The notes beneath the pieces are model-generated. The model was not told the origin of the DNA and searched no databases. It saw only the letters and a program-made list of their open reading frames with translations. Below, piece after piece: positions 44,430-58,658 of a stretch of 64,000 nucleotides of DNA (position 1 is the stretch's first letter; each line of letters starts with the position of its first letter). The translations under genes were made by a program, and so were the position numbers. Source of the DNA: Cyanobacteria bacterium auto_48_18 (GTDB taxonomy: Bacteria > Cyanobacteriota > Vampirovibrionia > Obscuribacterales > Obscuribacteraceae); NCBI GenBank assembly GCA_036170915.1, contig JAVHQC010000005.1, positions 36,651 to 100,650 of the forward strand. The letters are read 5' to 3'.

Positions 44430-45812
44430 ATGCCACGCGATCGCACAAAAGAAATAGACGTGTCAAATCTGCGCAGAAAGTATCGCAAGCGCATCCGCAA
44501 GGTTGAGAAGCTCGTACTCTCTCGCACTCATCCTACCGTTGCGGCCCAGTGGCATCCGAAAAAGAACAAAGGTTTGGGACCTGAAGATGTCACTTATGGA
44601 TCGCACATTAAGTTATGGTGGCTTTGCGATGTACATCCGTCACACGAGTGGGAAGCCGCGCCACATAGCCGCTGTGGTGCCAATGGTAAGCTTAGAAGCG
44701 GGTGTCCATGTTGTTCTGGAAACAAAGCCTGCGTTACGAATTCCCTGGCAACATTGTTTCCTAAAATTGCATCGGACTGGCATCCATCAAAGAATACTGG
44801 CTTGACACCAGAACACTTTACCGGCAGCAGCAATTACAGTGCCTGGTGGCAGTGCAAGATCAATAAAACACATGTCTGGCAAGCCGCAATTGGTTGGCGA
44901 ACAAGAGATGACACCGGCTGCCCATTTTGTAGCAACAAAAAAGTATCAAAAACAAATTCGCTGGCGGCGCTTTACCCGAAGCTCGCGTCTGAATTTCATT
45001 CTAGCAAAAATGGCAATCTTACCGCGCGAGAAGTTATAGCAAACAGTCACACTATATATTGGTGGGAATGCCGCCAGCACCATGAATGGCAGACATCACC
45101 AAAGAGTAGAATTGCCGACAAAACGAGATGTCCCTACTGTGTCGGACGAATTGCTGATGACGAGAATAATCTCGCTGTACTTTATCCGGATATTGCAAGT
45201 GAGTGGCACCCGATTGCAAATGGCAAATTGTCACCGTGGACGGTATTGCCAGGTGGTCACAGAAAAATTTACTGGCGATGTAGCAAAGATCAAACACATA
45301 TTTGGCAGGCAAAATTGGTTTCTCGCACCAGAAATGGCTCGGGCTGCCCAGAATGTGCTCTAGTCAAAAGATCAAATAAACGTCCGAGGGCGTCTAAGAC
45401 CAATAACCTCTCGAAAACTTTTCCACAGCTCGCGAAGCAATGGCATCCGACTCTTAACGGCGATTTACGACCAACCGATGTCACCGCTGGTAGTAATAAG
45501 TTTGTATGGTGGAAATGCGCAAAAGCATCAGATCATGTCTGGTCTACCCAGGTAGCGTCGAGAGTGACATCAAAAACTGGTTGTCCATTTTGCTCCGGTC
45601 GAAAAGTTTCCACAACAAACTGTCTGGCCAAAACGTTTCCTGAAGTTGCGGCGCAATGGCACCCGACAAAAAACGGCGCACTGTCGCCAGCTCTAGTTAC
45701 CAACACGAGTAAGCTTAAAGTGTGGTGGCAATGTTCAGCAAGCAAAAAGCATGCCTGGCAAGCAACAGTCAGGTATCGCACCCAGAGGGGCCAGACCTGC
45801 CCAAAATGTTGA
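44430..45812 (+). CDS. Zinc-ribbon repeat protein (DUF4379-like, six repeats)
   Basis: Six units of L...P..A..(W/F)H...N.....W.C....H.W.......CP.C. Confidence 0.88.
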   Translation: MPRDRTKEIDVSNLRRKYRKRIRKVEKLVLSRTHPTVAAQWHPKKNKGLGPEDVTYGSHIKLWWLCDVHPSHEWEAAPHSRCGANGKLRSGCPCCSGNKACVTNSLATLFPKIASDWHPSKNTGLTPEHFTGSSNYSAWWQCKINKTHVWQAAIGWRTRDDTGCPFCSNKKVSKTNSLAALYPKLASEFHSSKNGNLTAREVIANSHTIYWWECRQHHEWQTSPKSRIADKTRCPYCVGRIADDENNLAVLYPDIASEWHPIANGKLSPWTVLPGGHRKIYWRCSKDQTHIWQAKLVSRTRNGSGCPECALVKRSNKRPRASKTNNLSKTFPQLAKQWHPTLNGDLRPTDVTAGSNKFVWWKCAKASDHVWSTQVASRVTSKTGCPFCSGRKVSTTNCLAKTFPEVAAQWHPTKNGALSPALVTNTSKLKVWWQCSASKKHAWQATVRYRTQRGQTCPKC

Positions 45813-45985: not shown

Positions 45986-47803
45986 ATGTTAGACAATACA
46001 AACACGAGTGACAATGTTGTTGCACCATTAGAACAAGCCACAGACAGTTCTGTGCGACTACAAGATGAAGCAGGCGATATAACGTCTTATAGCACTCCAG
46101 CCGATATCGCCATAAGTACACAAAAAATGGTCGATGCTGGCCAGGTTCCCTCCCTCGAGATTGATTTTTCTGGTAACGACGAATCTTTTAACAGTATGAT
46201 CTCGACCAATGGCCTTAAGGTATTTAATTCACCCGGTCGCGGTCAGATTGATTATTTCTCTCAAGTTGATGGTATGGATGACCCTGGCTTCTTCTATAAC
46301 GGTGAAGATGGCGCAATCACTAAAAGCGGCATAGACAGCTATGTTGCTCAAAACGATAGCACGGCACCTCGGCGATCTACTAATCCTAGAAAAGACGAAT
46401 TTGTAGACTCGCTAAAACAAATTTCTGAAAATTGGGACAGCCCTGAAATGGCACCATACAAAGAATCTGAAGCTTCTATGACGAGAGAATCTTTCGCAGC
46501 CGGCTTAGAGTCTTTACCCGCGCGGCAAGAACAGGCTGCCGCAGATGAAGCACAAATTCCAACAGAAAATACGCCAGTCGAGGTTTTGCCTAAGGCTCCG
46601 GAAGATGTTGCTGTTGATGCTCCTGTTGATGTTTCTGTCGATGCTCCTGTTGATGTTTCTGTCGATGCTCCTGTCGATGCTCCCGTAGATGCTCCGGTAG
46701 ACGAGCCGCTTGACGAACCTGCGGCGACTTTGACACTAGCTGATGAAGTAACTGAGCTTTCACTTGTTCGTCCAGGCGAAGGACCTTACCAAGTCGCTGA
46801 GCGTGTACTTTCCTCAGGTGAGAGTGCCGCCAGCCATGACGAAGTGATGGCTTTGACGCGGGCCATGCAAGAACAGTATCGCGAAGAATATCCAGAAGAT
46901 CCGAGTTTGGTTGGCCTAAAGGTCAATCATCAGTTTCTCTCCCCAGAGAAAGTTGACGCACTCTTGAACTCAATTTCTGACCCGAGTTTGAAAGAGAGTA
47001 TTGCAGCAAAGTTATTCAAGACAGCTGAAAGCGCCACCGACACTGCCACCACCGACTCCGACAGTACCGACTCCAAGACCGCCACAGATAGCACTTCAGT
47101 AAGCACTTTCGACACCATGATTGCGACTGACGGTCTTACGGTCTTCGCTCCACCTGCCAGTGGTGAGGCTGACTTTTTTAGTGAAGTTGACGGGATGAAT
47201 AATGAGGGAACTATAGAAGAAGGAAATGACGGAGCTATAAGCAAATTTGATATAGACAGCTTCCTCAGTGCCAGTGTTGCTAACAATGATATGTCAGAAA
47301 GCTCCGGCGACCCGTTAAGAGATAAGTTTGTTGATTCAATCAAGTCGATCTCTGAAAATTGGGATCGTCCAGAAATGGCTGCCTACAAAGATTCTAATGG
47401 TGCAATGACAAGAGAATCATTTGCTGCCGGCGTGGAATCTTTGCCGCAAACCCAGGAAGCCATAGCGGAGACTGTCGATGCCGGCCAACCAACTTCACCT
47501 TTAGTTCTGAGTGAAACAGCTGCTGAGCTATCTCAGATTCGTAGTGGAGAAGGGCCATACCAAGTGGCTGCTCGAATACTCACCTCTGGGGGGAATTCTG
47601 CTAGTAATTCAGAAGTCACTGCACTTATGCGTGCCATGCAAGCTCAGTACCGTCAAGAAAATCCCGATGATGCAACCATGGCAGGTCTAAAAGCAGGTAC
47701 TCGATTACTTACTGAAGAGAGCGCAGCTGCCGTACTGGAGAGCATAGCGGATCCACTACTGAGAGCCAGTATTGAAGCTAAAATCCGCCGACAAGATAGC
47801 TGA
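45986..47803 (+). CDS. Acidic protein built from an internal duplication (A-B-A-B)
   Basis: F..MI.T.GL.VF...DGAI.K..ID...MTRESFAAG.ESLP occurs twice; ELS..R.GEGPYQVA.R.L...RAMQ.QYR occurs twice. Confidence 0.8.
   Translation: MLDNTNTSDNVVAPLEQATDSSVRLQDEAGDITSYSTPADIAISTQKMVDAGQVPSLEIDFSGNDESFNSMISTNGLKVFNSPGRGQIDYFSQVDGMDDPGFFYNGEDGAITKSGIDSYVAQNDSTAPRRSTNPRKDEFVDSLKQISENWDSPEMAPYKESEASMTRESFAAGLESLPARQEQAAADEAQIPTENTPVEVLPKAPEDVAVDAPVDVSVDAPVDVSVDAPVDAPVDAPVDEPLDEPAATLTLADEVTELSLVRPGEGPYQVAERVLSSGESAASHDEVMALTRAMQEQYREEYPEDPSLVGLKVNHQFLSPEKVDALLNSISDPSLKESIAAKLFKTAESATDTATTDSDSTDSKTATDSTSVSTFDTMIATDGLTVFAPPASGEADFFSEVDGMNNEGTIEEGNDGAISKFDIDSFLSASVANNDMSESSGDPLRDKFVDSIKSISENWDRPEMAAYKDSNGAMTRESFAAGVESLPQTQEAIAETVDAGQPTSPLVLSETAAELSQIRSGEGPYQVAARILTSGGNSASNSEVTALMRAMQAQYRQENPDDATMAGLKAGTRLLTEESAAAVLESIADPLLRASIEAKIRRQDS
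46604..46720 (+). repeat. 12-nt coding tandem repeat (D-A-P-V / D-V-S-V linker)
   Basis: GATGCTCCTGTT/GATGTTTCTGTC-like units in tandem. Confidence 0.85.
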
Positions 47804-47806
47804 TTT

Positions 47807-48478
47807 TCACACGTTTGTATCGACCCGATATCCAAAGCCTCGCATATTCTTGATTATCATTCCTTTGGGATCTATCTTCTGACGCAATCGCTTAACGGTC
47901 TGTTTAACTGCCTGCGGATCAGGCTCTTCACATGCGCCCCACACGTGATGCACAAGGCTCTCAGAGGAATGACTTTTGTTGGGATGCAATATTAAGTACT
48001 CGAGTAATCTATGCTCAATTGGAGCAAGAAGAATCTCAGTGCCATTGAGATAGAAGCAATTTTTGTCAAGATCTAGAACTATAGGACCGGCTTGTATCAT
48101 GCCTTGAACGGCTCCGGCTCCGCGTCGAATCAAAACTTTCGCGCGCAGAAGCAACTCTTGGAGATGAAACGGTTTGCAAAGGTAATCGTCAGCGCCCGAT
48201 TGAAAACCCGCCACTTTATCAACTAGATCGTTTCTGCCGGTGAGAAACAGAACCGGCATCTGGCCTCCGCGACTTTTGTAATACCGGCATATTTCCGGCC
48301 CCAACATGTCCGGTAAATTGTAGTCCAGAATACACAGATCGTAGTCTGAAACAGACAAAAGGGTTTTAGCATCCTGACCGCTTGCCGCAACATCAACCAG
48401 ATAGCTTTCAGCCACTAGGTGCTCTTCTAGCAGGGCCAGCAGTTCTTTATCATCATCAACCAAAAGTACTTTCGACAT
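47807..48478 (-). CDS. OmpR/PhoB family response regulator
   Basis: VLLVDDD, ILDYNLP, FLT, GADDYLCKPF, winged helix ending RGFGY. Confidence 0.95.
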   Translation of the reverse strand: MSKVLLVDDDKELLALLEEHLVAESYLVDVAASGQDAKTLLSVSDYDLCILDYNLPDMLGPEICRYYKSRGGQMPVLFLTGRNDLVDKVAGFQSGADDYLCKPFHLQELLLRAKVLIRRGAGAVQGMIQAGPIVLDLDKNCFYLNGTEILLAPIEHRLLEYLILHPNKSHSSESLVHHVWGACEEPDPQAVKQTVKRLRQKIDPKGMIIKNMRGFGYRVDTNV

Positions 48479-48645
48479 AAAAGCTCTTATTCCCTGTCGA
48501 CAAGGCACCTCTAACCCAGCGCAAAACATAAATGGGAGCAAGCACCACCGACGTTACCAAGATGACACCAAAGCAGTCCTATTATTCTCAAACCGCCGAA
48601 CAAGAGCGGGTAACCGGTGCAAAATTTTTACTAGGAGAAACGAAA

Positions 48646-49201: not shown

Positions 49202-50986
49202 CTAAGCCTCTTCCAAAGAGAAACTGAAACGGCTTCCCTGACCTTCCTCGCTGTCGACTATCAAGTCGCTTTCGTGCAACCTTACGATCTGCCTGGCTAT
49301 AGAAAGTCCCAGGCCGAAGCCGCGATTAGCGTCCGATAAGTTGACTTGTCTATAGCTATCAAAAATCAATTCTCGTGAGGCCTCGGGAATGCCAGGACCG
49401 TGGTCTTCCACAAAGAACTCGACTTGATTTCCCCGCCCTACAGAGCCAATCTTGACCACCGAGTCACGCGAAGAAAATTTGATGGCATTCGACAGCAGGT
49501 TGATGAGCACTTGCTGTACGCGGTCAAAATCAGCGTATACCTCGGCATCTGATCGAACCACGTTAATTGATACCCCTTCATGCTGAGCAAACTCGGCCAA
49601 ACTTTCGACTGCACGCTTTACGATGGAGTCGGCATCGCAGGCTCTTATCTCGACCTTAAGAGCGCCAGCTTCATTACGTGAAAAATCAAGAATATTGGAG
49701 ACTAACCTGATCATCGAATCAATATTTCGAGCTGTTCGCTCTGCTCGTTCCTGAACCTTAACCGGAACGCCGTCGTAGCCGCCAGTTGCTAGCGCGGTGA
49801 GAAAAACTTGGGTGGAGGCAAGCGGTGCCCTGATATCATGACTGACGATATCCATAAAGCGAGCCTTAGAGCGCTCCAGCTCCAGCCTATCGCTAATATC
49901 GGTAGTCGACAAAATAAAGAAATCGCGTTCTCCTTGCTCGATTCTGATCAACGAGCAGGTAACATCTACGACTCCGTCATCTATGCGCCGGAGCTTAGTC
50001 TCGAAAGGGCGCCCAGTAGAGATCTCTTCTAGCTTGGTGTCTGCCAAAGCCTCAATGAACTGAGACAGGCTGCCATTATGCAGTTCCTGTTCGGTATGTC
50101 CAAGCATTTCTAGGAAACGGTCATTACATGATATCAACTGGCCTTCCGGTGTGAGCAAGACAATTCCTACAGGGGCGCTATCAATTATCAGCCTTACATG
50201 CTGTTCACTATCCTGCAATCGTTGAATCAAGCCTTCTACCGTGAAAGCCATTTGATGGAAAGACCGGTCAAGAAAAGCAATCTCGTCCTTTCCTGCCATC
50301 GCCGGAATTAGCTTTTTGCCGTCAGCAAAGAGCTTCGAATTAGTGGTTAGAATTCTCAGCTTCGAAACCACAGCCTTTACGAAAAAGAATAACAATCCGC
50401 CGGAAATCACTAAATTGACCAATTCTCCTAATACGAGAATTTGAAGCATCGACTTCTTTCTCTTGAGCGAAGAGTCCGAAGTTTCTCTAAGAAGCAACTT
50501 CTTAGAGTTAATCAGTTCCTTCATGCAGCCAAAAAGACGGCGCACTTTCTCGCGCCCCATATTGAAAGCAACAAACTTTTCTACTTCGATCTGTTCATCA
50601 AGCTTGACTCTATCCACAAATGAAACCACTAGGCCTTCCAGTTCTCTAGCTATCGAACTAGCTTTAGCCAAAGTTTTCACCGAGCCAGGATCGGCCCCGA
50701 GCTTAGGACCAAGAGACTTTAACTCTCTCCGAAACGATGCCACCTCCGATTTCAGACGCAATGCCGTCTCGTCATCTGGATGAGCCACGTAAAGTGCGCT
50801 CAGGCGTTCTGCATCGAAGAATCTGTTGATGAGAGTCTGCATCTCATCAATTGTCACTCGAGCATCGCGTTCGATTCTTGTATCTTCCATCGAATCAAGA
50901 ATTAAGCCATATAACGAGGACGCCAGAAGCAGCTGTACCAAAACCGTAAAGCTGATGAACACGCTCGCTCTTTGGGTGAGTGTCAT
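49202..50986 (-). CDS. Membrane sensor histidine kinase (TM-HAMP-PAS-HisKA-HATPase), intact
   Basis: SHDIRAPL H-box, NLLSNAIKF, DHGPGIP, GFGLGL. Confidence 0.93.
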   Translation of the reverse strand: MTLTQRASVFISFTVLVQLLLASSLYGLILDSMEDTRIERDARVTIDEMQTLINRFFDAERLSALYVAHPDDETALRLKSEVASFRRELKSLGPKLGADPGSVKTLAKASSIARELEGLVVSFVDRVKLDEQIEVEKFVAFNMGREKVRRLFGCMKELINSKKLLLRETSDSSLKRKKSMLQILVLGELVNLVISGGLLFFFVKAVVSKLRILTTNSKLFADGKKLIPAMAGKDEIAFLDRSFHQMAFTVEGLIQRLQDSEQHVRLIIDSAPVGIVLLTPEGQLISCNDRFLEMLGHTEQELHNGSLSQFIEALADTKLEEISTGRPFETKLRRIDDGVVDVTCSLIRIEQGERDFFILSTTDISDRLELERSKARFMDIVSHDIRAPLASTQVFLTALATGGYDGVPVKVQERAERTARNIDSMIRLVSNILDFSRNEAGALKVEIRACDADSIVKRAVESLAEFAQHEGVSINVVRSDAEVYADFDRVQQVLINLLSNAIKFSSRDSVVKIGSVGRGNQVEFFVEDHGPGIPEASRELIFDSYRQVNLSDANRGFGLGLSIARQIVRLHESDLIVDSEEGQGSRFSFSLEEA

Positions 50987-51084: not shown

Positions 51085-52848
51085 CTAGCCTTCAGCAAAG
51101 GCAGGGAGCTGAAACAATATCACTGCTCCGCCGCTCTCGGCGTTCTCTGCCCTGATAGAGCCACAGTGCCTCTCGATGATTGTTCTACAAACACTCAGCC
51201 CCAAGCCCGTGGATGGCACCGTATTCTGCGATTGATTGTCAGCCTGCTGGTAAGCTGTGAAAATCGTGGCCAAGGCCTTTTCGGGTATTCCAGCTCCGCT
51301 ATCGCTAATGGAAAAACTGACAACGTTCTTGAGCAACTTAGACTCAACTTTGATGGTGCCATTTTCAGGAGTAAACTTAATAGCATTAGAGAGCAAATTG
51401 ATGATTACCCGCTCTAATTCCCACCTGTTGCAAGCTATCATCGCAAATTCTGGTCGTGCAACTATAGTAATTTGTTTCTTCCAAGCTAGATTGCGAACCG
51501 CATCAACAGCGTCACCTATAACTGCCTGATTAATACAGAAATCAAGATCAAGACCACCTTCAGCCGTATCACAATCGGCCTGATTAAGTTGATTTAGCAA
51601 AATAGCCAATCGCTCTACATTGCCCTTAATTGACAAAACATGCTTGTTCTCGGCGGCACCAGGACCTTCAAGTGATGACAGCGAAGCACTAGCTTCCTTC
51701 ACCATAGCTAAGGGCACGCCTAGCTCAGTAGTCAAATAAGCGCCCATCTGCTCACGCACTAGAGACATGTTGGTGGCATCTGTTACGTCCATGACCAGAG
51801 TAAAGTAAGACTGATGTTGTTCGCTCCAATTAACGGTCCAACTAGTGTGCAGGGGCATAGCTTTGTGGTTTACCAGTGTCAGCTTGGTGGTCATTTTCTT
51901 TTGCTCATCTCTGGCCCGCTCAAAAACGGTCTCCAGGCGCAAACGAACAACATCATCAAATAGAGTAAAGAAAACTATTTTGTCGAGTTTGGAAGATTGA
52001 GGATCGATCTGCAGCCAGCGCAAAGCCGACTGATTGGCCATCAGTATGCGACCGTCTGCATCTAAACGACAGATTAAGGCTGGTGAAAGCTCATAAAGTT
52101 GCTTCTGCTCTGCATAGGCAGCAGTCAGTTCAGAGCTTATTTGGTGCAAGCAGTCATCAACAGCCTCGATTTCTGCCGGTGCTTGTACTGGCAAATTAAG
52201 CGCTTGGCCATGGCCTAACCTTCTGGCATTATCAAGGATGATCGAGAGCGGCCTGTAAACCAGTCGAAAAATTAGCAATGTCATTGCCACTAAAGATAGT
52301 GTCAGACCTAGCCAGCCAACATGCAAGTAATTGCGCAATCTTTCACTTCCAGCCAGGTTGTCGAACTCAATCTGATTGCGCTCATGATTTACTTCGCGGG
52401 CAGCGCCCAGTAGTATCTCAAACAAATACACTGATTGCTCAGCAACGGTTTTTGTAGTTATAGAAGAAGGTCCGCTAGCATATTGACGCAAACGTTCAGC
52501 ATTCTTTTTTGCTTGTTCCAATTGCTGCCTTTTGGTCTGTGAAAGCACAGGCAAGCTTAAGATATTGCTGATGCGACCACTCAATTCTGAGGGCAACGAC
52601 AACTCTTGCAGCGTTGAAACTAACCTCGGATTATCGACTTGGAATTTGACAAAGAACATATACTCAAGCAAATCAATGATTAGCTTATTTATTCGCTTCG
52701 AGCATTCCTCTGCCTCAAGTTCACGTTTAATTGAAGCTTCAGCAAGTACCAACTGATAATTTATCAAAGCCAAAAATGACAGCTGACAAAGCAAAGGCAG
52801 GGCAAAAAGAATAAGACCAGCCAAGGAAAGTGAAAGTTTCTTCTTCAT
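51085..52848 (-). CDS. Sensor histidine kinase lacking the phosphoacceptor His (ATPase motifs intact)
   Basis: H-box reads TTELGVPL; NLLSNAIKF, DSGAGIP and STGLGLS are present. Confidence 0.85.
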   Translation of the reverse strand: MKKKLSLSLAGLILFALPLLCQLSFLALINYQLVLAEASIKRELEAEECSKRINKLIIDLLEYMFFVKFQVDNPRLVSTLQELSLPSELSGRISNILSLPVLSQTKRQQLEQAKKNAERLRQYASGPSSITTKTVAEQSVYLFEILLGAAREVNHERNQIEFDNLAGSERLRNYLHVGWLGLTLSLVAMTLLIFRLVYRPLSIILDNARRLGHGQALNLPVQAPAEIEAVDDCLHQISSELTAAYAEQKQLYELSPALICRLDADGRILMANQSALRWLQIDPQSSKLDKIVFFTLFDDVVRLRLETVFERARDEQKKMTTKLTLVNHKAMPLHTSWTVNWSEQHQSYFTLVMDVTDATNMSLVREQMGAYLTTELGVPLAMVKEASASLSSLEGPGAAENKHVLSIKGNVERLAILLNQLNQADCDTAEGGLDLDFCINQAVIGDAVDAVRNLAWKKQITIVARPEFAMIACNRWELERVIINLLSNAIKFTPENGTIKVESKLLKNVVSFSISDSGAGIPEKALATIFTAYQQADNQSQNTVPSTGLGLSVCRTIIERHCGSIRAENAESGGAVILFQLPAFAEG

Positions 52849-54653
52849 GGCGATTGACCCGCTTTGTTTGGAGCAGTCGCAAATAAAATAGTAGCCTCGC
52901 TGTATGTATTGTCTGATTTCAGCAAGGTCAGAGTAGCGAAATGTTTGCGCAGAACAGATTCGACAAGATAAAACGACATAGGCAAAGAGAGCATCGCTAT
53001 TAGATCTTGGCTGATTTCTTGGCTGACCGGCTCACTAAGCTTCTCAGCCGGCTGCGGCGCCGACGCCAAGGCTAGATTTGCAGATTGCAGTTTGAGGTTG
53101 AGCGCCAAATCATTGCCGCTGGAATTAAGGGTCGCGGTGAATAGATCGCCAGGCAAAGAACTCTGCAGCAAAAAGCAAAAGAGAATTTCTAAAACTTTCT
53201 GCAACTGAAGAGCATCACCATTTAGAAATTGCGGTGCTCCAATAATCTCGAGCTCAACTTCATCGTAACTTTTTGAGGCTCGATCAAGAGCCTGCACTGT
53301 CACTTCAAGCAAATCTATTTGACTTGCAGCCAAACCCAAATTGCCTGATTCTAGCTTTTTCCAATCGAGCACGTCAGTAATAAGATCAGTCAACTTGATA
53401 CTCTGAGCCAACCCGCTACTAAGGCTGCTCTTTTCATGATCATTCATTTGAGCAGCCTTTGTCGCCTGCAATAATTGAAAAGCTGTTGAAATGGACATCA
53501 ATGGTGTGCGCATATCATGATTGAGCGAAGCAATAATGTCCTCGCGAAATCTTTCGATGCGCTTTGCTTTGGTAATGTCATGCGAAATGCAAAAATACTC
53601 TTGTGTATTGGAGTTCCATTTGACGATCCACAAGAAGTAAGCATCAATGCCACTGGGGTCACGATGTCTAAGCTCCACCGTACATGGAAAATCTGCTAAT
53701 TTCGCCTGAGTCAAGCAATTCTGCAACAACTCTTCCGAGCCATCATCAAGAATGTCTGCAATGCAGCTCCCGATAAGATAGCTACTGGGATAGCCCCAGA
53801 ATATTTCAGATAACTGATTTACCGCTAGGAGCTTGCCGTCAGCAGTTAAAGAGCAAAGCACATCTCCAGAATATTGCAGAACTGCTAGCTGCTGCCTATG
53901 AAGTTGATCAAGAGCAGAAATAGCCGCAGCAACGCTTGCATCTAATGCAGCTATCTCATCGCCGCCCGTTAACGACTTTAACTTTTGACCAGAGCTGAAT
54001 AGCTTTATGCGTTCAGGCAGCTGCTTCAAGCGACTTACCAATAGCCGATTGAATGCGAGCAAAGACAAACAAAAAATTAGAACCGCTAGAAGTATGCCGC
54101 TTGCATTGAGCGCGGCAATCGTTTGCGACTCTTTAGCCAACGCCTCGCGAGCCAACGTTTGCATCGAATCTTCAGCAGCAAGACCGTGGTTTAGCAAAGT
54201 TCTAGCCGATACAGCAACCAAGTAAACTTCAAATCTTGTGCTCTTTTCGCGGCCAATTGAATCTACTTTTGAAATCTGCTGATAAAGCCCCGTCAAGCGG
54301 TCGCCCAGTTCAGTGAACTCTTCAGCAATAACCTTCATGCTAGGGTTCTTAGCTACAGCCTTATCAAGGTCGGTTTGCGACTTCTGCATAAGCTGCATAG
54401 TACCGGCGAGAAGTGTCTGCGCCTGAGGACTGAATATTTGTCCCTTACCAATCGAGCTATTCATGCCCTGAAGCAAAGCTACTTCAAATTGCTGCAAACC
54501 CACAAGTGCAGCAACTGATACTCGATGCTTCAAATATTCCTCTTCAAGTCGGGCAAGCGATAATGAGGCCCCGCCGACAATGATCAATGCACTGATGATC
54601 GACGGCACGAGCAGCAGCAATATTTTCAGTCGCAGTGAATATGTGAATAGCAC
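52845..54653 (-). CDS. Sensor histidine kinase with intact H-box and degenerate ATPase domain
   Basis: NHDMRTPL present; N-box reads QKVLEILFCFLLQS; no DxGxG or GxGL. Confidence 0.85.
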   Translation of the reverse strand: MLFTYSLRLKILLLLVPSIISALIIVGGASLSLARLEEEYLKHRVSVAALVGLQQFEVALLQGMNSSIGKGQIFSPQAQTLLAGTMQLMQKSQTDLDKAVAKNPSMKVIAEEFTELGDRLTGLYQQISKVDSIGREKSTRFEVYLVAVSARTLLNHGLAAEDSMQTLAREALAKESQTIAALNASGILLAVLIFCLSLLAFNRLLVSRLKQLPERIKLFSSGQKLKSLTGGDEIAALDASVAAAISALDQLHRQQLAVLQYSGDVLCSLTADGKLLAVNQLSEIFWGYPSSYLIGSCIADILDDGSEELLQNCLTQAKLADFPCTVELRHRDPSGIDAYFLWIVKWNSNTQEYFCISHDITKAKRIERFREDIIASLNHDMRTPLMSISTAFQLLQATKAAQMNDHEKSSLSSGLAQSIKLTDLITDVLDWKKLESGNLGLAASQIDLLEVTVQALDRASKSYDEVELEIIGAPQFLNGDALQLQKVLEILFCFLLQSSLPGDLFTATLNSSGNDLALNLKLQSANLALASAPQPAEKLSEPVSQEISQDLIAMLSLPMSFYLVESVLRKHFATLTLLKSDNTYSEATILFATAPNKAGQSP

Positions 54654-54747
54654 AGCAGAAATGCTACCACTAGTCAGCTAAATGGTTTGCCGATAAACTT
54701 GCCTAAAGCAGTCAAGGAAACCTTGAATTTACAGGAATATTTTCGGC

Positions 54748-55425
54748 ATGGCCAAGATTCTGCTGGTTGAAGATGAATTGCAAGCAGCAACTATGGTGCA
54801 AGAATGGATGCAGATGCAAGGCCATTTAGTTGAAATGGTGACCACTGCTGAAGACGCGCTGCAACTTCTCGCCAATTTTGAATATGACATTATCCTTTTA
54901 GACTGGAACCTTCCAGGAATATCTGGACTAGAAATGTGCAAACGGCACCGCTTACAGGGTGGCCAAACTGCCATTCTTTTCTTAACCGGAAAAGGCGATA
55001 TTGACGATCGGGCTGAAGGCCTCGATACCGGTGCTGATGATTACTTGGTTAAGCCATTTGATGTTCGTGAGTTAGCAGCGCGGGTGCGGGGGCTCTTACG
55101 CCGCCCGGCAGCAGTCGAAAGCAAAGTTCTAACGGCCCAGGGTTTAGTATTGAACACTGCCAACAAAAGCATCACATCTGGCGAAAAGTTTGAAATTCTG
55201 CGCGCCAAAGAGTGCGAAGTTCTTGAGCTGCTTCTCGTCAATCGAGGCAGTGCCTTCACCTCTAAACAACTAATTGCTGCTCTCTGGCCAGTTGAATCGA
55301 ACTCGTCTACCAATACGGTCAGACAAGTAATTAACACCCTGCGCCAGAAGCTCACTAGCGTTGGCCACGACCAACTTATCATCACCGCAGCAGGCAGCGG
55401 ATACACCATTCCATCTGACCAGTGA
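54748..55425 (+). CDS. OmpR/PhoB family response regulator
   Basis: ILLVEDE, LLDWNLP, FLT, GADDYLVKPF, LRQKL...GSGY. Confidence 0.95.
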   Translation: MAKILLVEDELQAATMVQEWMQMQGHLVEMVTTAEDALQLLANFEYDIILLDWNLPGISGLEMCKRHRLQGGQTAILFLTGKGDIDDRAEGLDTGADDYLVKPFDVRELAARVRGLLRRPAAVESKVLTAQGLVLNTANKSITSGEKFEILRAKECEVLELLLVNRGSAFTSKQLIAALWPVESNSSTNTVRQVINTLRQKLTSVGHDQLIITAAGSGYTIPSDQ

Positions 55426-55599
55426 AGCAGGGCTGAAATCTTCAGAATCCTTGTATGGCGATGTACTCTCCAGGAATTTTTTGCGCTTTTTTAGGCGTTA
55501 TTTTGTTTCACGTTGATTTGACCCCCCTGCGCTTTATCTTGTTGTCATGAAGCAGGCGCGGCCAACGAGCCTTTACTAGCAATCACCAGGAGAAGAACA

Positions 55600-56271
55600 A
55601 TGAAACATGCAGAATCTGATTTTAGAGAAGTACGCAATAACACCCAAGTTAGCGAGCAAGCTGCTGCTCAAATAGTTGCCGTTGGTCGAATGGCAGATGA
55701 GCTCTATGCTAGCGGTGTGGGAAAGAAGCCTATGATTGGCGGCCAAAGCAAATGTACAGGTGAGTCAGCGATTAAAAAATGCTTGCCCCAAATGGGCGGG
55801 GGTAATGATGACCACTCTATGGGTAGAGATAGCGATGAAGATGATGACATGAACCGCGATGGCGAACATGGCGACGATGAAGATTTTGACGGCGACGAGG
55901 ATGACAGCGAAGACGACATGAGTCGCGATGGCGAAGATGACGGCGATGAAGATTTTGACGGCGACGTCAAGGGTGGCAAAGGTAAAGAAGATTACCGCTG
56001 CAAAGATGGCGGCCAGCACAATGAGAACGAAAAGGGCGAACTGAAGAAAAACTTCAACGGTCAAGATCTACAGGGTGCCGTCGGAGATGGCAGCGTAAGA
56101 GGTGAACTCAAGCAAAACTTCAACGGGAATGATCGTCCCGTCGAAGGCGATAGAGAAAACCGAGATCACAATTCAGGCAGTCGAAATTGGCCACGCAGCT
56201 TCAGAGACAATGACGAATCACTGCCGCCTTCACTCTATATGGACAGTCCTTATCAGACATTCACTGCCTAG
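55600..56271 (+). CDS. Asp/Gly-rich low-complexity protein with internal repeats
   Basis: AGGAG RBS; 23-aa unit DDM.RDGE...DEDFDGD occurs twice; ELK.NFNG.D occurs twice; followed by a terminator. Confidence 0.7.
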   Translation: MKHAESDFREVRNNTQVSEQAAAQIVAVGRMADELYASGVGKKPMIGGQSKCTGESAIKKCLPQMGGGNDDHSMGRDSDEDDDMNRDGEHGDDEDFDGDEDDSEDDMSRDGEDDGDEDFDGDVKGGKGKEDYRCKDGGQHNENEKGELKKNFNGQDLQGAVGDGSVRGELKQNFNGNDRPVEGDRENRDHNSGSRNWPRSFRDNDESLPPSLYMDSPYQTFTA

Positions 56272-56519: not shown

Positions 56520-58658
56520 TTGGGCAACGGCGATTTGAAAAAGAGCATGAGCCGTCTCTTCTGGCTCAGTTTCGTGCTCCTTTTTGCCGAAATTTTGTGT
56601 ATACGCTGGCTCGGTTTTGAACTTATTATTGTTCGCATCTTCCCGAACTTGATAGTCATGGCTGCTCTTGTCTCGACGTCGACAGGGTTGATCGCTCAGG
56701 CACGGGAAAAAACCACCGGTATCAAAAAGAGACTCTGGATTGACAATGACATTGCTCTGGCAATTGCAGCCTGTCTACTTCTTTCTAGTGCCATTTTTTC
56801 CGTGCCCTGGCATTTGACTGATCTGAGTGTTCGTTTTGAAACCGCCAGCCCCACCACTATCGCTGCCGCGGTTACTGCCATCTTTTCTGTTATCGGTTGC
56901 GTCTATATTCTCTTTCGACGCATCGGTTATCTTCTCGGCGGTGAGTTCGAGAAACATGAGCCTCTCAAGGCATATTCGGTAAATTTGTTGGGCAGTATAG
57001 TGGGAACTCTCGCTATCGGAATTGTGTCGTGGTTCAGCCTGCCACCATCGGTGGCACTACTTGTGCTGGCTGCTGCCGTTTTTTCTCTTGCTGATCAGAA
57101 AAAGGTAAAAGCTTTGTGTCTTGGCGTTGGCTTGGTATTTTCGGTGCTGGCTTTCGTGCAGTACAAAGACGTCTACTGGTCGCCCTACAGCAAGCTCACA
57201 GTTACTCCGGTGAAATCAGATAAGAATACCGTAGTCGGTCCCGGTAGCTTCGTTCTCAATTCCAACAATGCTTACTTCCATACCGGAATGCGAATTCTGC
57301 CAAAGGAGAAAGAGGCAGAGTTCCTTGCCAAGAAACCAATCTCTGAGCAAGACAAGACGATTCTCTGGTACTACAGTCGCAATAAAACTCCTTTCGAGTG
57401 TGCGCCACGGTTGGACGATGTTCTCGTGCTCGGAGCCGGCTCTGGCAATGATGTAGCCTATGGCCTTATGCGCGGTGTTAAGAAAATCGACGGTGTCGAA
57501 ATCGATCCGGTCATTGCTACATTCGGCAAAATAATTCACCCCAACAAGCCCTGGGCCGATCCTCGCGCCACGGTTCACAACGAAGATGCAAGAACTTATT
57601 TGCGATATTCAGACCGCAAGTATGACCTCGTGTTGTTCGCGAATTTGGATCCTGGTGCCACTATTAACACAGCGTCGTTTCTTCGCGTCGATAACTTCGT
57701 TTATACAGTTGAATCGATGCGGTCGGCTTTGCGCATGCTCAAACCCGACGGATTGATTGCGCTCTCGTTCGCCACTGGTCCTGATAGCATCATCACCGAT
57801 CGTCTTTACAAGACCATTGAAACCGCCAGCGGTGCCAAGCCAATGGCGTTCGTCGATGAAGAGTGGGATTCTGTTTTGTTCTTGTTCGGACCAGGAGCTG
57901 CCACTGTCGATGCTGCCAAAGTCCTGGCTCTGGAGCCGGCCCTGAAACCCTGGCCGCCTGCGGACAGGAATACCGACACGCGTGCCTGCACAGACGACTG
58001 GCCGTTTCTCTATACCAACTTTCATATGGAAGGCATGGTTCTCTATTTTTCAGTATTGCTGGTGGCGGTAGTGGTGCCTGCTCTGCTTACCATTCTGGGT
58101 ACGCCGCAGGGTTCGTCGATATCTCCCGGGGAATGGGGCAACATGTTCTTCCTTGGGCAGGCGTTCATGCTTGTCGAGACAAAGTCAATAACACAGTTGT
58201 CGTTGCTCTTCGGGGCCACATGGTTAGTAAGCTCGATCGTCATTTTGACTATCTTGATACTGGCATGGTTGGCTAATCTTGTCGTCATGAAACTTCCCAA
58301 GGCACCGCTAGCGGTGCTGTACGCTGGTCTTTTTCTTTGTTTGCTGGCAGACTTTTTCTTCACGGTTCCCGAGACTACCAACTTGCCTCCCCTGGCACTG
58401 GGTGCGATGGCATCACTCTTTGCCTGCTGTCCGATTTTATTTGGTAGCATGACGTTCTCCCGCTGCTTCAAAGATACCAAGCGACCACTGGAGCTTCTTT
58501 CGGCCAATTTGCTCGGAGTTGCTTTTGGTGGCCTGACTGAGAATCTGTGCCTGTGGTTTGGCATTAAGGGGCTACCGATTATTGGAATGGTTCTCTACGG
58601 CCTATCTGGCGTTTGTCTGCTTATTCATCAAAGGCGCAAGAAAGACCAGAGTTCATAA
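56520..58658 (+). CDS. Multi-pass membrane protein with central spermidine-synthase-like SAM-binding domain
   Basis: AYSVNLLGS..G, WSPYSK, VLVLGAGSGND, VEIDP, EDAR, TDDWPFLY, FMLVE, ANLLG. Confidence 0.85.
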   Translation: MGNGDLKKSMSRLFWLSFVLLFAEILCIRWLGFELIIVRIFPNLIVMAALVSTSTGLIAQAREKTTGIKKRLWIDNDIALAIAACLLLSSAIFSVPWHLTDLSVRFETASPTTIAAAVTAIFSVIGCVYILFRRIGYLLGGEFEKHEPLKAYSVNLLGSIVGTLAIGIVSWFSLPPSVALLVLAAAVFSLADQKKVKALCLGVGLVFSVLAFVQYKDVYWSPYSKLTVTPVKSDKNTVVGPGSFVLNSNNAYFHTGMRILPKEKEAEFLAKKPISEQDKTILWYYSRNKTPFECAPRLDDVLVLGAGSGNDVAYGLMRGVKKIDGVEIDPVIATFGKIIHPNKPWADPRATVHNEDARTYLRYSDRKYDLVLFANLDPGATINTASFLRVDNFVYTVESMRSALRMLKPDGLIALSFATGPDSIITDRLYKTIETASGAKPMAFVDEEWDSVLFLFGPGAATVDAAKVLALEPALKPWPPADRNTDTRACTDDWPFLYTNFHMEGMVLYFSVLLVAVVVPALLTILGTPQGSSISPGEWGNMFFLGQAFMLVETKSITQLSLLFGATWLVSSIVILTILILAWLANLVVMKLPKAPLAVLYAGLFLCLLADFFFTVPETTNLPPLALGAMASLFACCPILFGSMTFSRCFKDTKRPLELLSANLLGVAFGGLTENLCLWFGIKGLPIIGMVLYGLSGVCLLIHQRRKKDQSS

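Follow-up and report, generated by a model that had tools for sequence, protein, structure and literature searches.

The window analyzed here is a 64,000-nucleotide (nt) stretch from the genome of Cyanobacteria bacterium auto_48_18 (contig JAVHQC010000005.1, positions 36,651 to 100,650). It contains two adjacent sensor kinase genes – gene A (52845-54653) and gene B (51085-52848), together termed pair 1 – that have lost opposite halves of the kinase active site: A retains the phospho-accepting His and lacks the ATP-binding boxes, whereas B retains the boxes and lacks the His. Given these opposite losses, the repeated appearance of the same trade elsewhere and the existence of single-chain fusions in relatives, A and B are likely to work only as a mixed pair. 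We consider it probable that the two proteins are obligate heterodimer partners sharing one active site, in which B phosphorylates the His of A in trans and the phosphate feeds the adjacent OmpR-type regulator. The features on which this proposal is built are as follows.

52845-54653, minus strand: gene A, 602 amino acids (aa), proposed phospho-acceptor subunit (Pfam HisKA, structural model, fold search, codon-based selection analysis); transmembrane (TM) segment, four-helix-type sensor, TM segment, HAMP-like segment, PAS, dimerization/histidine-phosphotransfer (DHp) domain with His379, degenerate ATP-domain fold
53499-53519, minus strand: H box of gene A, with His379, acidic H+1, Arg H+3 and Thr H+4
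53517-53519, minus strand: His codon of gene A (CAT, His379)
53340-53375, minus strand: end of DHp helix 2 of gene A, residues 427-438, predicted docking surface for the ATP domain of the partner
51085-52848, minus strand: gene B, 587 aa, proposed catalytic subunit with a layout like that of gene A (Pfam HATPase_c, codon-based selection analysis); Thr374 in place of the His; N, G1 and G2 boxes all intact
51727-51729, minus strand: Thr codon (ACT) at the His position of gene B
51373-51402, minus strand: N box of gene B
51289-51303, minus strand: G1 box of gene B
51196-51207, minus strand: G2 box of gene B
52845-52848, minus strand: ATGA stop/start overlap of genes A and B, probably with translational coupling
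54748-55425, plus strand: divergent OmpR/PhoB-type response regulator (Pfam Response_reg and Trans_reg_C)

The two proteins align end to end (330 aligned columns, probability 99%). Gene A matches Pfam HisKA (40.3 bits, residues 370-437) and gives no HATPase_c match at E≤1; gene B matches HATPase_c (84.9 bits, residues 477-582), and the Pfam scan gives no HisKA match. Neither chain carries both the phospho-accepting His and the intact ATP domain of a canonical HisKA kinase. The initial annotation, made from the sequence without database searches, had described these complementary losses, the Thr at the His position, the overlap and the full length of both frames, and on each of these points it is borne out. 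Its account of what A has lost holds for the boxes; the domain itself has not been deleted: in the model of A the C-terminal domain retains the ATP-domain fold (mean predicted local distance difference test score, pLDDT, of 78.9) with a disordered lid (pLDDT <50). A DHp domain plus a GHKL-type fold is present in A by model and fold search, and in B by the HATPase_c match; the solved folds nearest to the model of A are HK853, RetS and DivL. The layout ascribed to both proteins (TM, sensor, HAMP, PAS, HisKA, catalytic domain) is recovered in part. Two hydrophobic segments and a PAS match are found in each (the match in A lies under the Pfam cut-off), but Pfam detects no HAMP in A, B or the neighboring kinase, and a HAMP-like segment is suggested by a DEIxxLD-type motif and by weak matches in relatives. 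That neighboring kinase (49202-50986), offered as an internal control, serves fairly as one for the motifs, since it does match both HisKA and HATPase_c with both motif sets intact, but it follows B in none of seven orthologous loci.

The host genome, with 71 kinase-domain open reading frames (ORFs), contains a second reciprocal pair.

G000:C4:38435-42120, host genome, outside the window: second reciprocal pair (pair 2; L028-L038)

Pair 2 lies on another contig and shares gene order, overlap and losses with pair 1, with Leu in place of the His; identity to the window pair is 31.5% for A and 35.5% for B. Profile searches gave 21 strong B-type matches among 104 genomes of the family and 22 strong A-type matches among 107 genomes of the order. 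Both sets are confined to 14 of the genus's 15 genomes, the same ones in each case, and the genome without a strong match is 77% complete. In the genus there are 19 intact adjacent pairs, all with A followed by B, the overlap being 4 nt in 17 and 1 nt in two. The remaining three cases are a frameshifted adjacent pair, a pair split across two contig ends, and an A gene ~230 bp from a contig end: wherever the neighbor is visible, no A or B is solitary. Within A-type proteins the H-box His, Asp, Arg, Thr and Pro are unchanged in 14 of 14 aligned rows, and the end of DHp helix 2 – gone from B-type proteins – is kept. The His position of B is Thr or Ser among pair-1 orthologs, and Leu, Ile or Val among pair-2 paralogs. 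The initial annotation had named orthologs that are intact or that do not co-occur as evidence against a heterodimer; the genus shows losses that are conserved and paired. Frameshifts affect both pair-2 genes and a neighboring kinase at L071 (G009:C133), either as sequencing errors or as marks of pseudogenes.

Selection on these genes was estimated as the ratio of nonsynonymous to synonymous substitution rates (dN/dS) under codon models, from ortholog sets of 7-12 sequences each that yield point estimates without confidence intervals. Whole-gene dN/dS is 0.16 for the window A set and 0.13 for the B set (pair 2: 0.11 and 0.09, respectively). All 24 domain partitions of the four ortholog sets lie between 0.04 and 0.31, the highest value being that of the dead ATP domain of pair-1 A. 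For B the ATP domain gives 0.105 and the His-less DHp domain 0.136, and its ATP boxes are retained at 0.08-0.105; sensor regions give 0.11 and 0.14 in pair 1, and 0.16 and 0.11 in pair 2. These estimates indicate that every domain of A and B is under purifying selection. Because of this selection, the second pair in the host genome and the pairs in 14 of 15 genus genomes, the losses are not attributed to decay.

The same trade occurs in other genera. Kinases of the family were catalogued in six genomes of other genera, with pairs chosen by position and an ATP site counted as dead if at least two of the N-box Asn, the G1 Asp, the G1 glycines and the G2 glycines were lost. The counts exclude a truncated kinase from outside the family at the L112 edge, those G034 matches that were double-PAS or only partial single ones, and weak cross-matches outside the genus (including L074-L079 and the G087 match). 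The 21 unfused pairs comprise 13 that are reciprocal, eight that are fully intact, and none of any other kind. Both gene orders are represented among the 13, and one is convergent: the genes of this pair (L109:2291-6533) overlap at their 3' ends and lie beside a regulator, and from their orientation it follows that co-transcription is not required. Fused double kinases in the six genomes are reciprocal in four cases out of four. From one genome 24 single kinases were retrieved, all with His and N box and 23 with every ATP motif; three of the seven kinase pairs in that genome are reciprocal.

A larger set of fusions was obtained by a protein search with one reciprocal fused gene.

P0001-P0120 and L039, L088, L089, L090, L099, L100, L103: fused family members

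The search gave 190 matches, and the 120 listed are all double kinases of ~1250 aa. Among these 120, 93 have a His-less, ATP-intact module followed by a His-bearing, ATP-dead module, and one has the reverse order (94 reciprocal); 21 are fully intact, and five show one loss (of the ATP site in three, of the His in two). Both losses fall on one module in none of the 120 listed fusions and in none of the 21 unfused pairs, and no listed fusion has lost both His residues or both ATP sites. Four hydrophobic segments are found in 104 of the 120, and the linker between modules measures 37-122 aa (median 52). Database names of fused relatives point to Candidatus Obscuribacterales, and the named fused proteins are annotated solely as 'PAS domain S-box protein', a name under which annotation pipelines miss the pattern. 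One locus (L088) holds three intact fused double kinases in tandem. An AlphaFold model of the natural fusion P0056 (1198 aa, 59-row alignment; pLDDT 82, predicted template modeling score 0.56) gives at most a hint that the modules pack against each other and was kept out of the evidence; a fold search with it returned ordinary kinases only. Covariation between modules across the 120 fusions placed 10 near-diagonal pairs in the top 100 by mean-field direct-coupling analysis and eight by mutual information, with 5.9 expected.

Repeated origin of the split is seen in a tree built from 190 modules (the HAMP-PAS-DHp region after masking of the H box, fusions thinned; a quick IQ-TREE search with approximate likelihood-ratio, SH-aLRT, support only). 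This tree requires at least 13 changes at the His and at least 11 at the ATP site, and a reduced set requires 10 of each. A single clade for 24 ATP-dead modules is rejected by the approximately unbiased (AU) test (p-AU 1.6e-44), for which 119 of the 190 rows were used after four long-branch rows had been dropped and the set thinned further. Supported separate cases are the window genus (A clade 100, B clade 100); L083/L091, whose two modules are both sister to the intact pair L093 (97, 96); L086, whose own two modules are mutual sisters (100); L097/L107 (95); L094/L074/L075 (93); the main group of fusions; and P0100, the fusion with reversed order, which lies inside intact fusions (98, 99). 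The tree, in which several long branches are unplaced, indicates that the reciprocal split arose at least six times.

The direction of these losses bears on mechanism. In histidine kinases the handedness of the DHp hairpin sets whether phosphorylation occurs in cis or in trans (PMC6798134). If the family acted in cis, both the His and the ATP site would be expected to disappear from one and the same module; only the opposite is seen, which suggests action in trans. In the trans-acting kinase CpxA a mobile, catalytic ATP domain is combined with a parked one; one subunit contributes the His, the acidic H+1 and the Arg at H+3, the other contributes both N-box Asn, and the active ATP domain contacts Arg296 near the end of the second DHp helix of the opposite subunit (PMC3904827). 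By residue spacing, residues 427-438 of A would correspond to Leu291-Arg296 of CpxA (PMC3904827). In 16 representative pairs, related lineages included, a Lys or Arg at the end of helix 2 is found in 16/16 His-bearing and 5/16 His-less modules (18/19 intact modules), Thr, Ser or Asn at H+4 in 15/16 vs. 6/16, and the first N-box Asn in 7/16 vs. 16/16. By analogy, this division of residues would match the trans Michaelis complex of CpxA.

We therefore propose the following model. The starting point would be tandem intact kinases that already dimerize; in such a dimer one His and one ATP site are redundant, so that either could be lost first, and the opposite loss would then lock the pair. In the present-day pair the A/B heterodimer would be obligate and have only one active site: the ATP domain of B would transfer phosphate in trans to His379 of A, from which it would pass to the adjacent OmpR-type regulator. 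The dead ATP domain of A would serve as a parked, structural domain: if so, the pair hard-wires the asymmetry – one ATP domain mobile, one fixed – of homodimeric kinases. Since A keeps Thr at H+4, any phosphatase activity likely resides on A. The divergent regulator, described as intact in the initial annotation, indeed has both domains and Asp52, and this residue and the acidic, Thr and Lys positions are unchanged in 7/7 orthologs; it adjoins the pair in the window and in all six pair-1 loci that reach that far. This synteny makes the regulator the likely output of the A/B pair.

Several observations weigh against this model. HATPase_c scores of 48-62 bits persist in some modules from other genera that count as ATP-dead. 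The fusions were collected with a reciprocal query, which biases the 94 of 120 toward the clade of that query, and related fusions are not independent (the empty loss classes stay informative despite this bias); the 16 pairs of the residue comparison are likewise not independent. The closest solved folds include HK853, a cis-acting kinase, and WalK/VicK. VicK also acts in cis (PMC3904827). Pair 2 has no OmpR-type regulator alongside, which means that the link to a regulator does not hold for all pairs. The host genome also encodes two soluble kinases with Gln in place of the His and largely intact ATP domains (G000:C10:135230-136591 and C29:354097-355464), neither of which has a kinase neighbor within 4.5 kb: loss of the His can thus persist unpaired in other subfamilies. 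Finally, the argument is one of sequence comparison with its biochemical side predicted, and such patterns do not by themselves separate a true heterodimer from two cross-reacting homodimers.

The closest precedent is FasB/FasC/FasA of group A Streptococcus, in which two membrane kinases are encoded together with one regulator (PMC12675982). In the two-hybrid data described there, FasB and FasC give a heterodimer signal and no homodimer signal; FasC requires its His, while its kinase domain is dispensable (PMC12675982). A 2025 model holds that, within the heterodimer, the ATP domain of one subunit phosphorylates the His of the other; its authors themselves ask for biochemical tests, and the data leave room for cis phosphorylation of a FasB His (PMC12675982). 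The likeness to A and B is plain – co-encoded kinases, the His on one and the ATP site on the other, one regulator – and the idea of a kinase heterodimer is thus not unprecedented. The Fas kinases, however, carry six TM segments and their regulator is ComE-like, in contrast to the two TM segments, four-helix-type sensor, PAS, HisKA and OmpR-type regulator found here. Both Fas kinases are, moreover, still annotated with DHp and HATPase domains, whereas here His and ATP boxes have been removed outright; the split here also has several origins and occurs within single-chain fusions too. Given the different architecture (TM count, regulator), the A/B pair would work like FasB/FasC without being a member of that system.

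Other systems resemble the pair in part. In Mycobacterium tuberculosis, the His and ATP site of HK1/HK2 lie on separate polypeptides, and among class III nucleotidyl cyclases and ABC transporters there are heterodimeric or fused forms with one degenerate site. The latter are unrelated enzymes, and the likeness is one of analogy: a two-site homodimer has become a heterodimer or a fusion with one live site. CheA3 and CheA4, neither of which autophosphorylates alone, carry His and ATP site on separate chains (PMC3591291), Hik36/Hik43 is described as a split kinase (PMC7656254), and HK1/HK2-TcrA is listed as a split system (PMC9321153). All three share with A and B the placement of His and ATP site on different polypeptides; however, whole domains are absent there, whereas A and B are full-length paralogs, each with a sensor and a dead copy of the function it lacks. 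CpxA likewise has one mobile catalytic and one parked ATP domain per dimer, with residue sides that match the split, but in CpxA the asymmetry is dynamic and the subunits are complete (PMC3904827), whereas here it is apparently fixed in sequence. RetS/GacS and the pseudokinase DivL are examples of heteromers in the kinase family and of degenerate kinases, and RetS and DivL are near fold matches of A; but they are described as inhibitory or allosteric, RetS and GacS also homodimerize, and they are not mutually completing halves (PMC12189002, PMC8498467, PMC4211667). In our literature search – clearly incomplete, FasB/FasC having been missed – neither such pairs nor single-chain reciprocal double kinases turned up for this lineage. 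New relative to known systems are the HisKA/OmpR version, the repeated convergence, the one-loss intermediates and the single-chain fusions.

Among other explanations the one that survives best, although we regard it as unlikely, is a kinase split between homodimers, in which a B dimer transiently phosphorylates an A dimer in the manner of CheA4 and CheA3 (PMC3591291), with the free A dimer possibly acting as a phosphatase. It predicts reciprocal loss and strict co-occurrence equally well, and fits the Thr that A keeps at H+4. Parsimony nevertheless favors an in-register dimer, because A and B are membrane-anchored rods of equal length, the ancestral pairs are intact and fusions are joined by linkers of the length given above; moreover, the reported two-hybrid data for FasB and FasC lack a homodimer signal (PMC12675982). 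Considerably less probable is that the two proteins have separate roles, B as a DivL-like allosteric pseudokinase and A as a ChpT-like phosphotransfer protein or phosphatase fed by another kinase. DivL ranks near the top when the A domain is compared by fold and by profile, and the ~70 kinase-domain ORFs of the genome offer candidate donors; but separate roles account neither for the retention of all ATP boxes by B at dN/dS 0.08-0.105, nor for the complementary losses in every doubly affected pair or fusion examined. That two redundant genes decayed independently, or that the pattern is an artifact of assembly, has next to no probability: the dead ATP domain of pair-1 A is indeed the most relaxed partition (0.31), and one relative has frameshifts in the pair (though also in a neighboring kinase), but 19 pairs are intact, paralogous pairs 32-36% identical have the same losses, and conserved open frames with dN/dS well below 1 refute it.

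The proposed obligate heterodimer may or may not integrate two signals. The initial annotation had joined two claims: a heterodimer acting in trans, for which comparative evidence provides strong support, and an AND gate, in which each sensor has its own signal and output needs both. The second reaches beyond conservation of both sensor regions, and we hold it to be doubtful. In its favor, both regions are under purifying selection and are only ~21% identical to each other. However, their conservation fits equally well a structural role, a site built jointly by the two subunits, or a single sensor joined to a scaffold. The best matches of the sensor region are unnamed clusters, followed by 4HB_MCP_1, CHASE3 and TarH modules (a lead only), and in such modules the bound ligand often spans the interface of the dimer, which here would make for one composite site. 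When overexpressed, FasB still complements after removal of its membrane region (PMC12675982): since the membrane region of one Fas partner is dispensable, an AND gate does not follow. Rather speculative, too, is the broader idea that this lineage builds many sensor kinases as heterodimers, intact tandem pairs that already associate repeatedly and convergently dropping to one site and sometimes fusing into one chain, to give two-signal coincidence detectors, each with two unlike but conserved sensor halves.

Sensor kinases are usually treated as homodimers, and natural mutually completing pairs are documented in very few cases, chiefly FasB/FasC. The present family offers a full series of sequences – pairs still intact, intermediates with either loss alone, reciprocal pairs in either gene order, single-chain fusions – that makes testable the assignment of residues to subunits, the genetic fixing of dimer asymmetry, and the way in which heteromers turn obligate without new function. 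Natural single-chain double kinases are, in addition, ready scaffolds for two-input sensors.

Two further features lie around the pair and its regulator.

54651-54671, minus strand: invariant 21-nt stretch, consisting of TGnTAGCAT, 7 nt and the GTG start of gene A, in 7/7 genomes
55600-56271, plus strand: gene for an acidic low-complexity protein, 3' of the regulator, with a homolog in all six loci that reach it

The 21-nt stretch is a candidate extended -10 promoter with a leaderless start of A; it is not listed by a paired-hexamer promoter scan, and the promoter and terminator scan performed at chance (8 found vs. 5.7 expected). Upstream (5') of the regulator, at about 54720-54725 on the plus strand, the window lacks an 8-nt stretch present in orthologs, which is TATACTAA in five of six orthologous loci and a variant in the sixth. 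This stretch may be the -10 element of the regulator. The acidic protein has no match in the Pfam scan, and its gene is a possible target of the regulator. A conserved non-coding block 5' of this gene (55505-55550, plus strand) contains two TTT(C/G)AC units 11 bp apart, the second differing by one base in one locus; these units are a candidate regulator box. On the other side, the neighboring kinase (49202-50986) and a second OmpR-type regulator (47807-48541), both on the minus strand, were considered as parts of the system and rejected, being syntenic in none of seven loci. A short plus-strand ORF lies between these two genes, and one relative has a HipA-family gene on that side instead (L021:4468-5763). 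In the scanned pair-2 locus a PspA/IM30 gene follows B in the same orientation, and a similar gene follows B in the other loci: a link to envelope stress is possible.

Elsewhere in the host genome, a membrane protein without the His and without ATP boxes (C29:309794-312157) has no kinase neighbor within 4.5 kb. Three other genes of the window, all on the plus strand, may be mentioned. One (45986-47803) encodes an acidic protein of 605 aa, for which no Pfam family passes; within it a module bearing a GEGPYQVA motif occurs twice, with a short repeat tract between the copies. Another (44430-45812) encodes a 460-aa protein with about seven Cys/Trp-rich repeats that, by eye, resemble zinc-ribbon units. 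The third (56520-58658) encodes a 712-aa membrane protein with a spermidine-synthase-like domain (Pfam).

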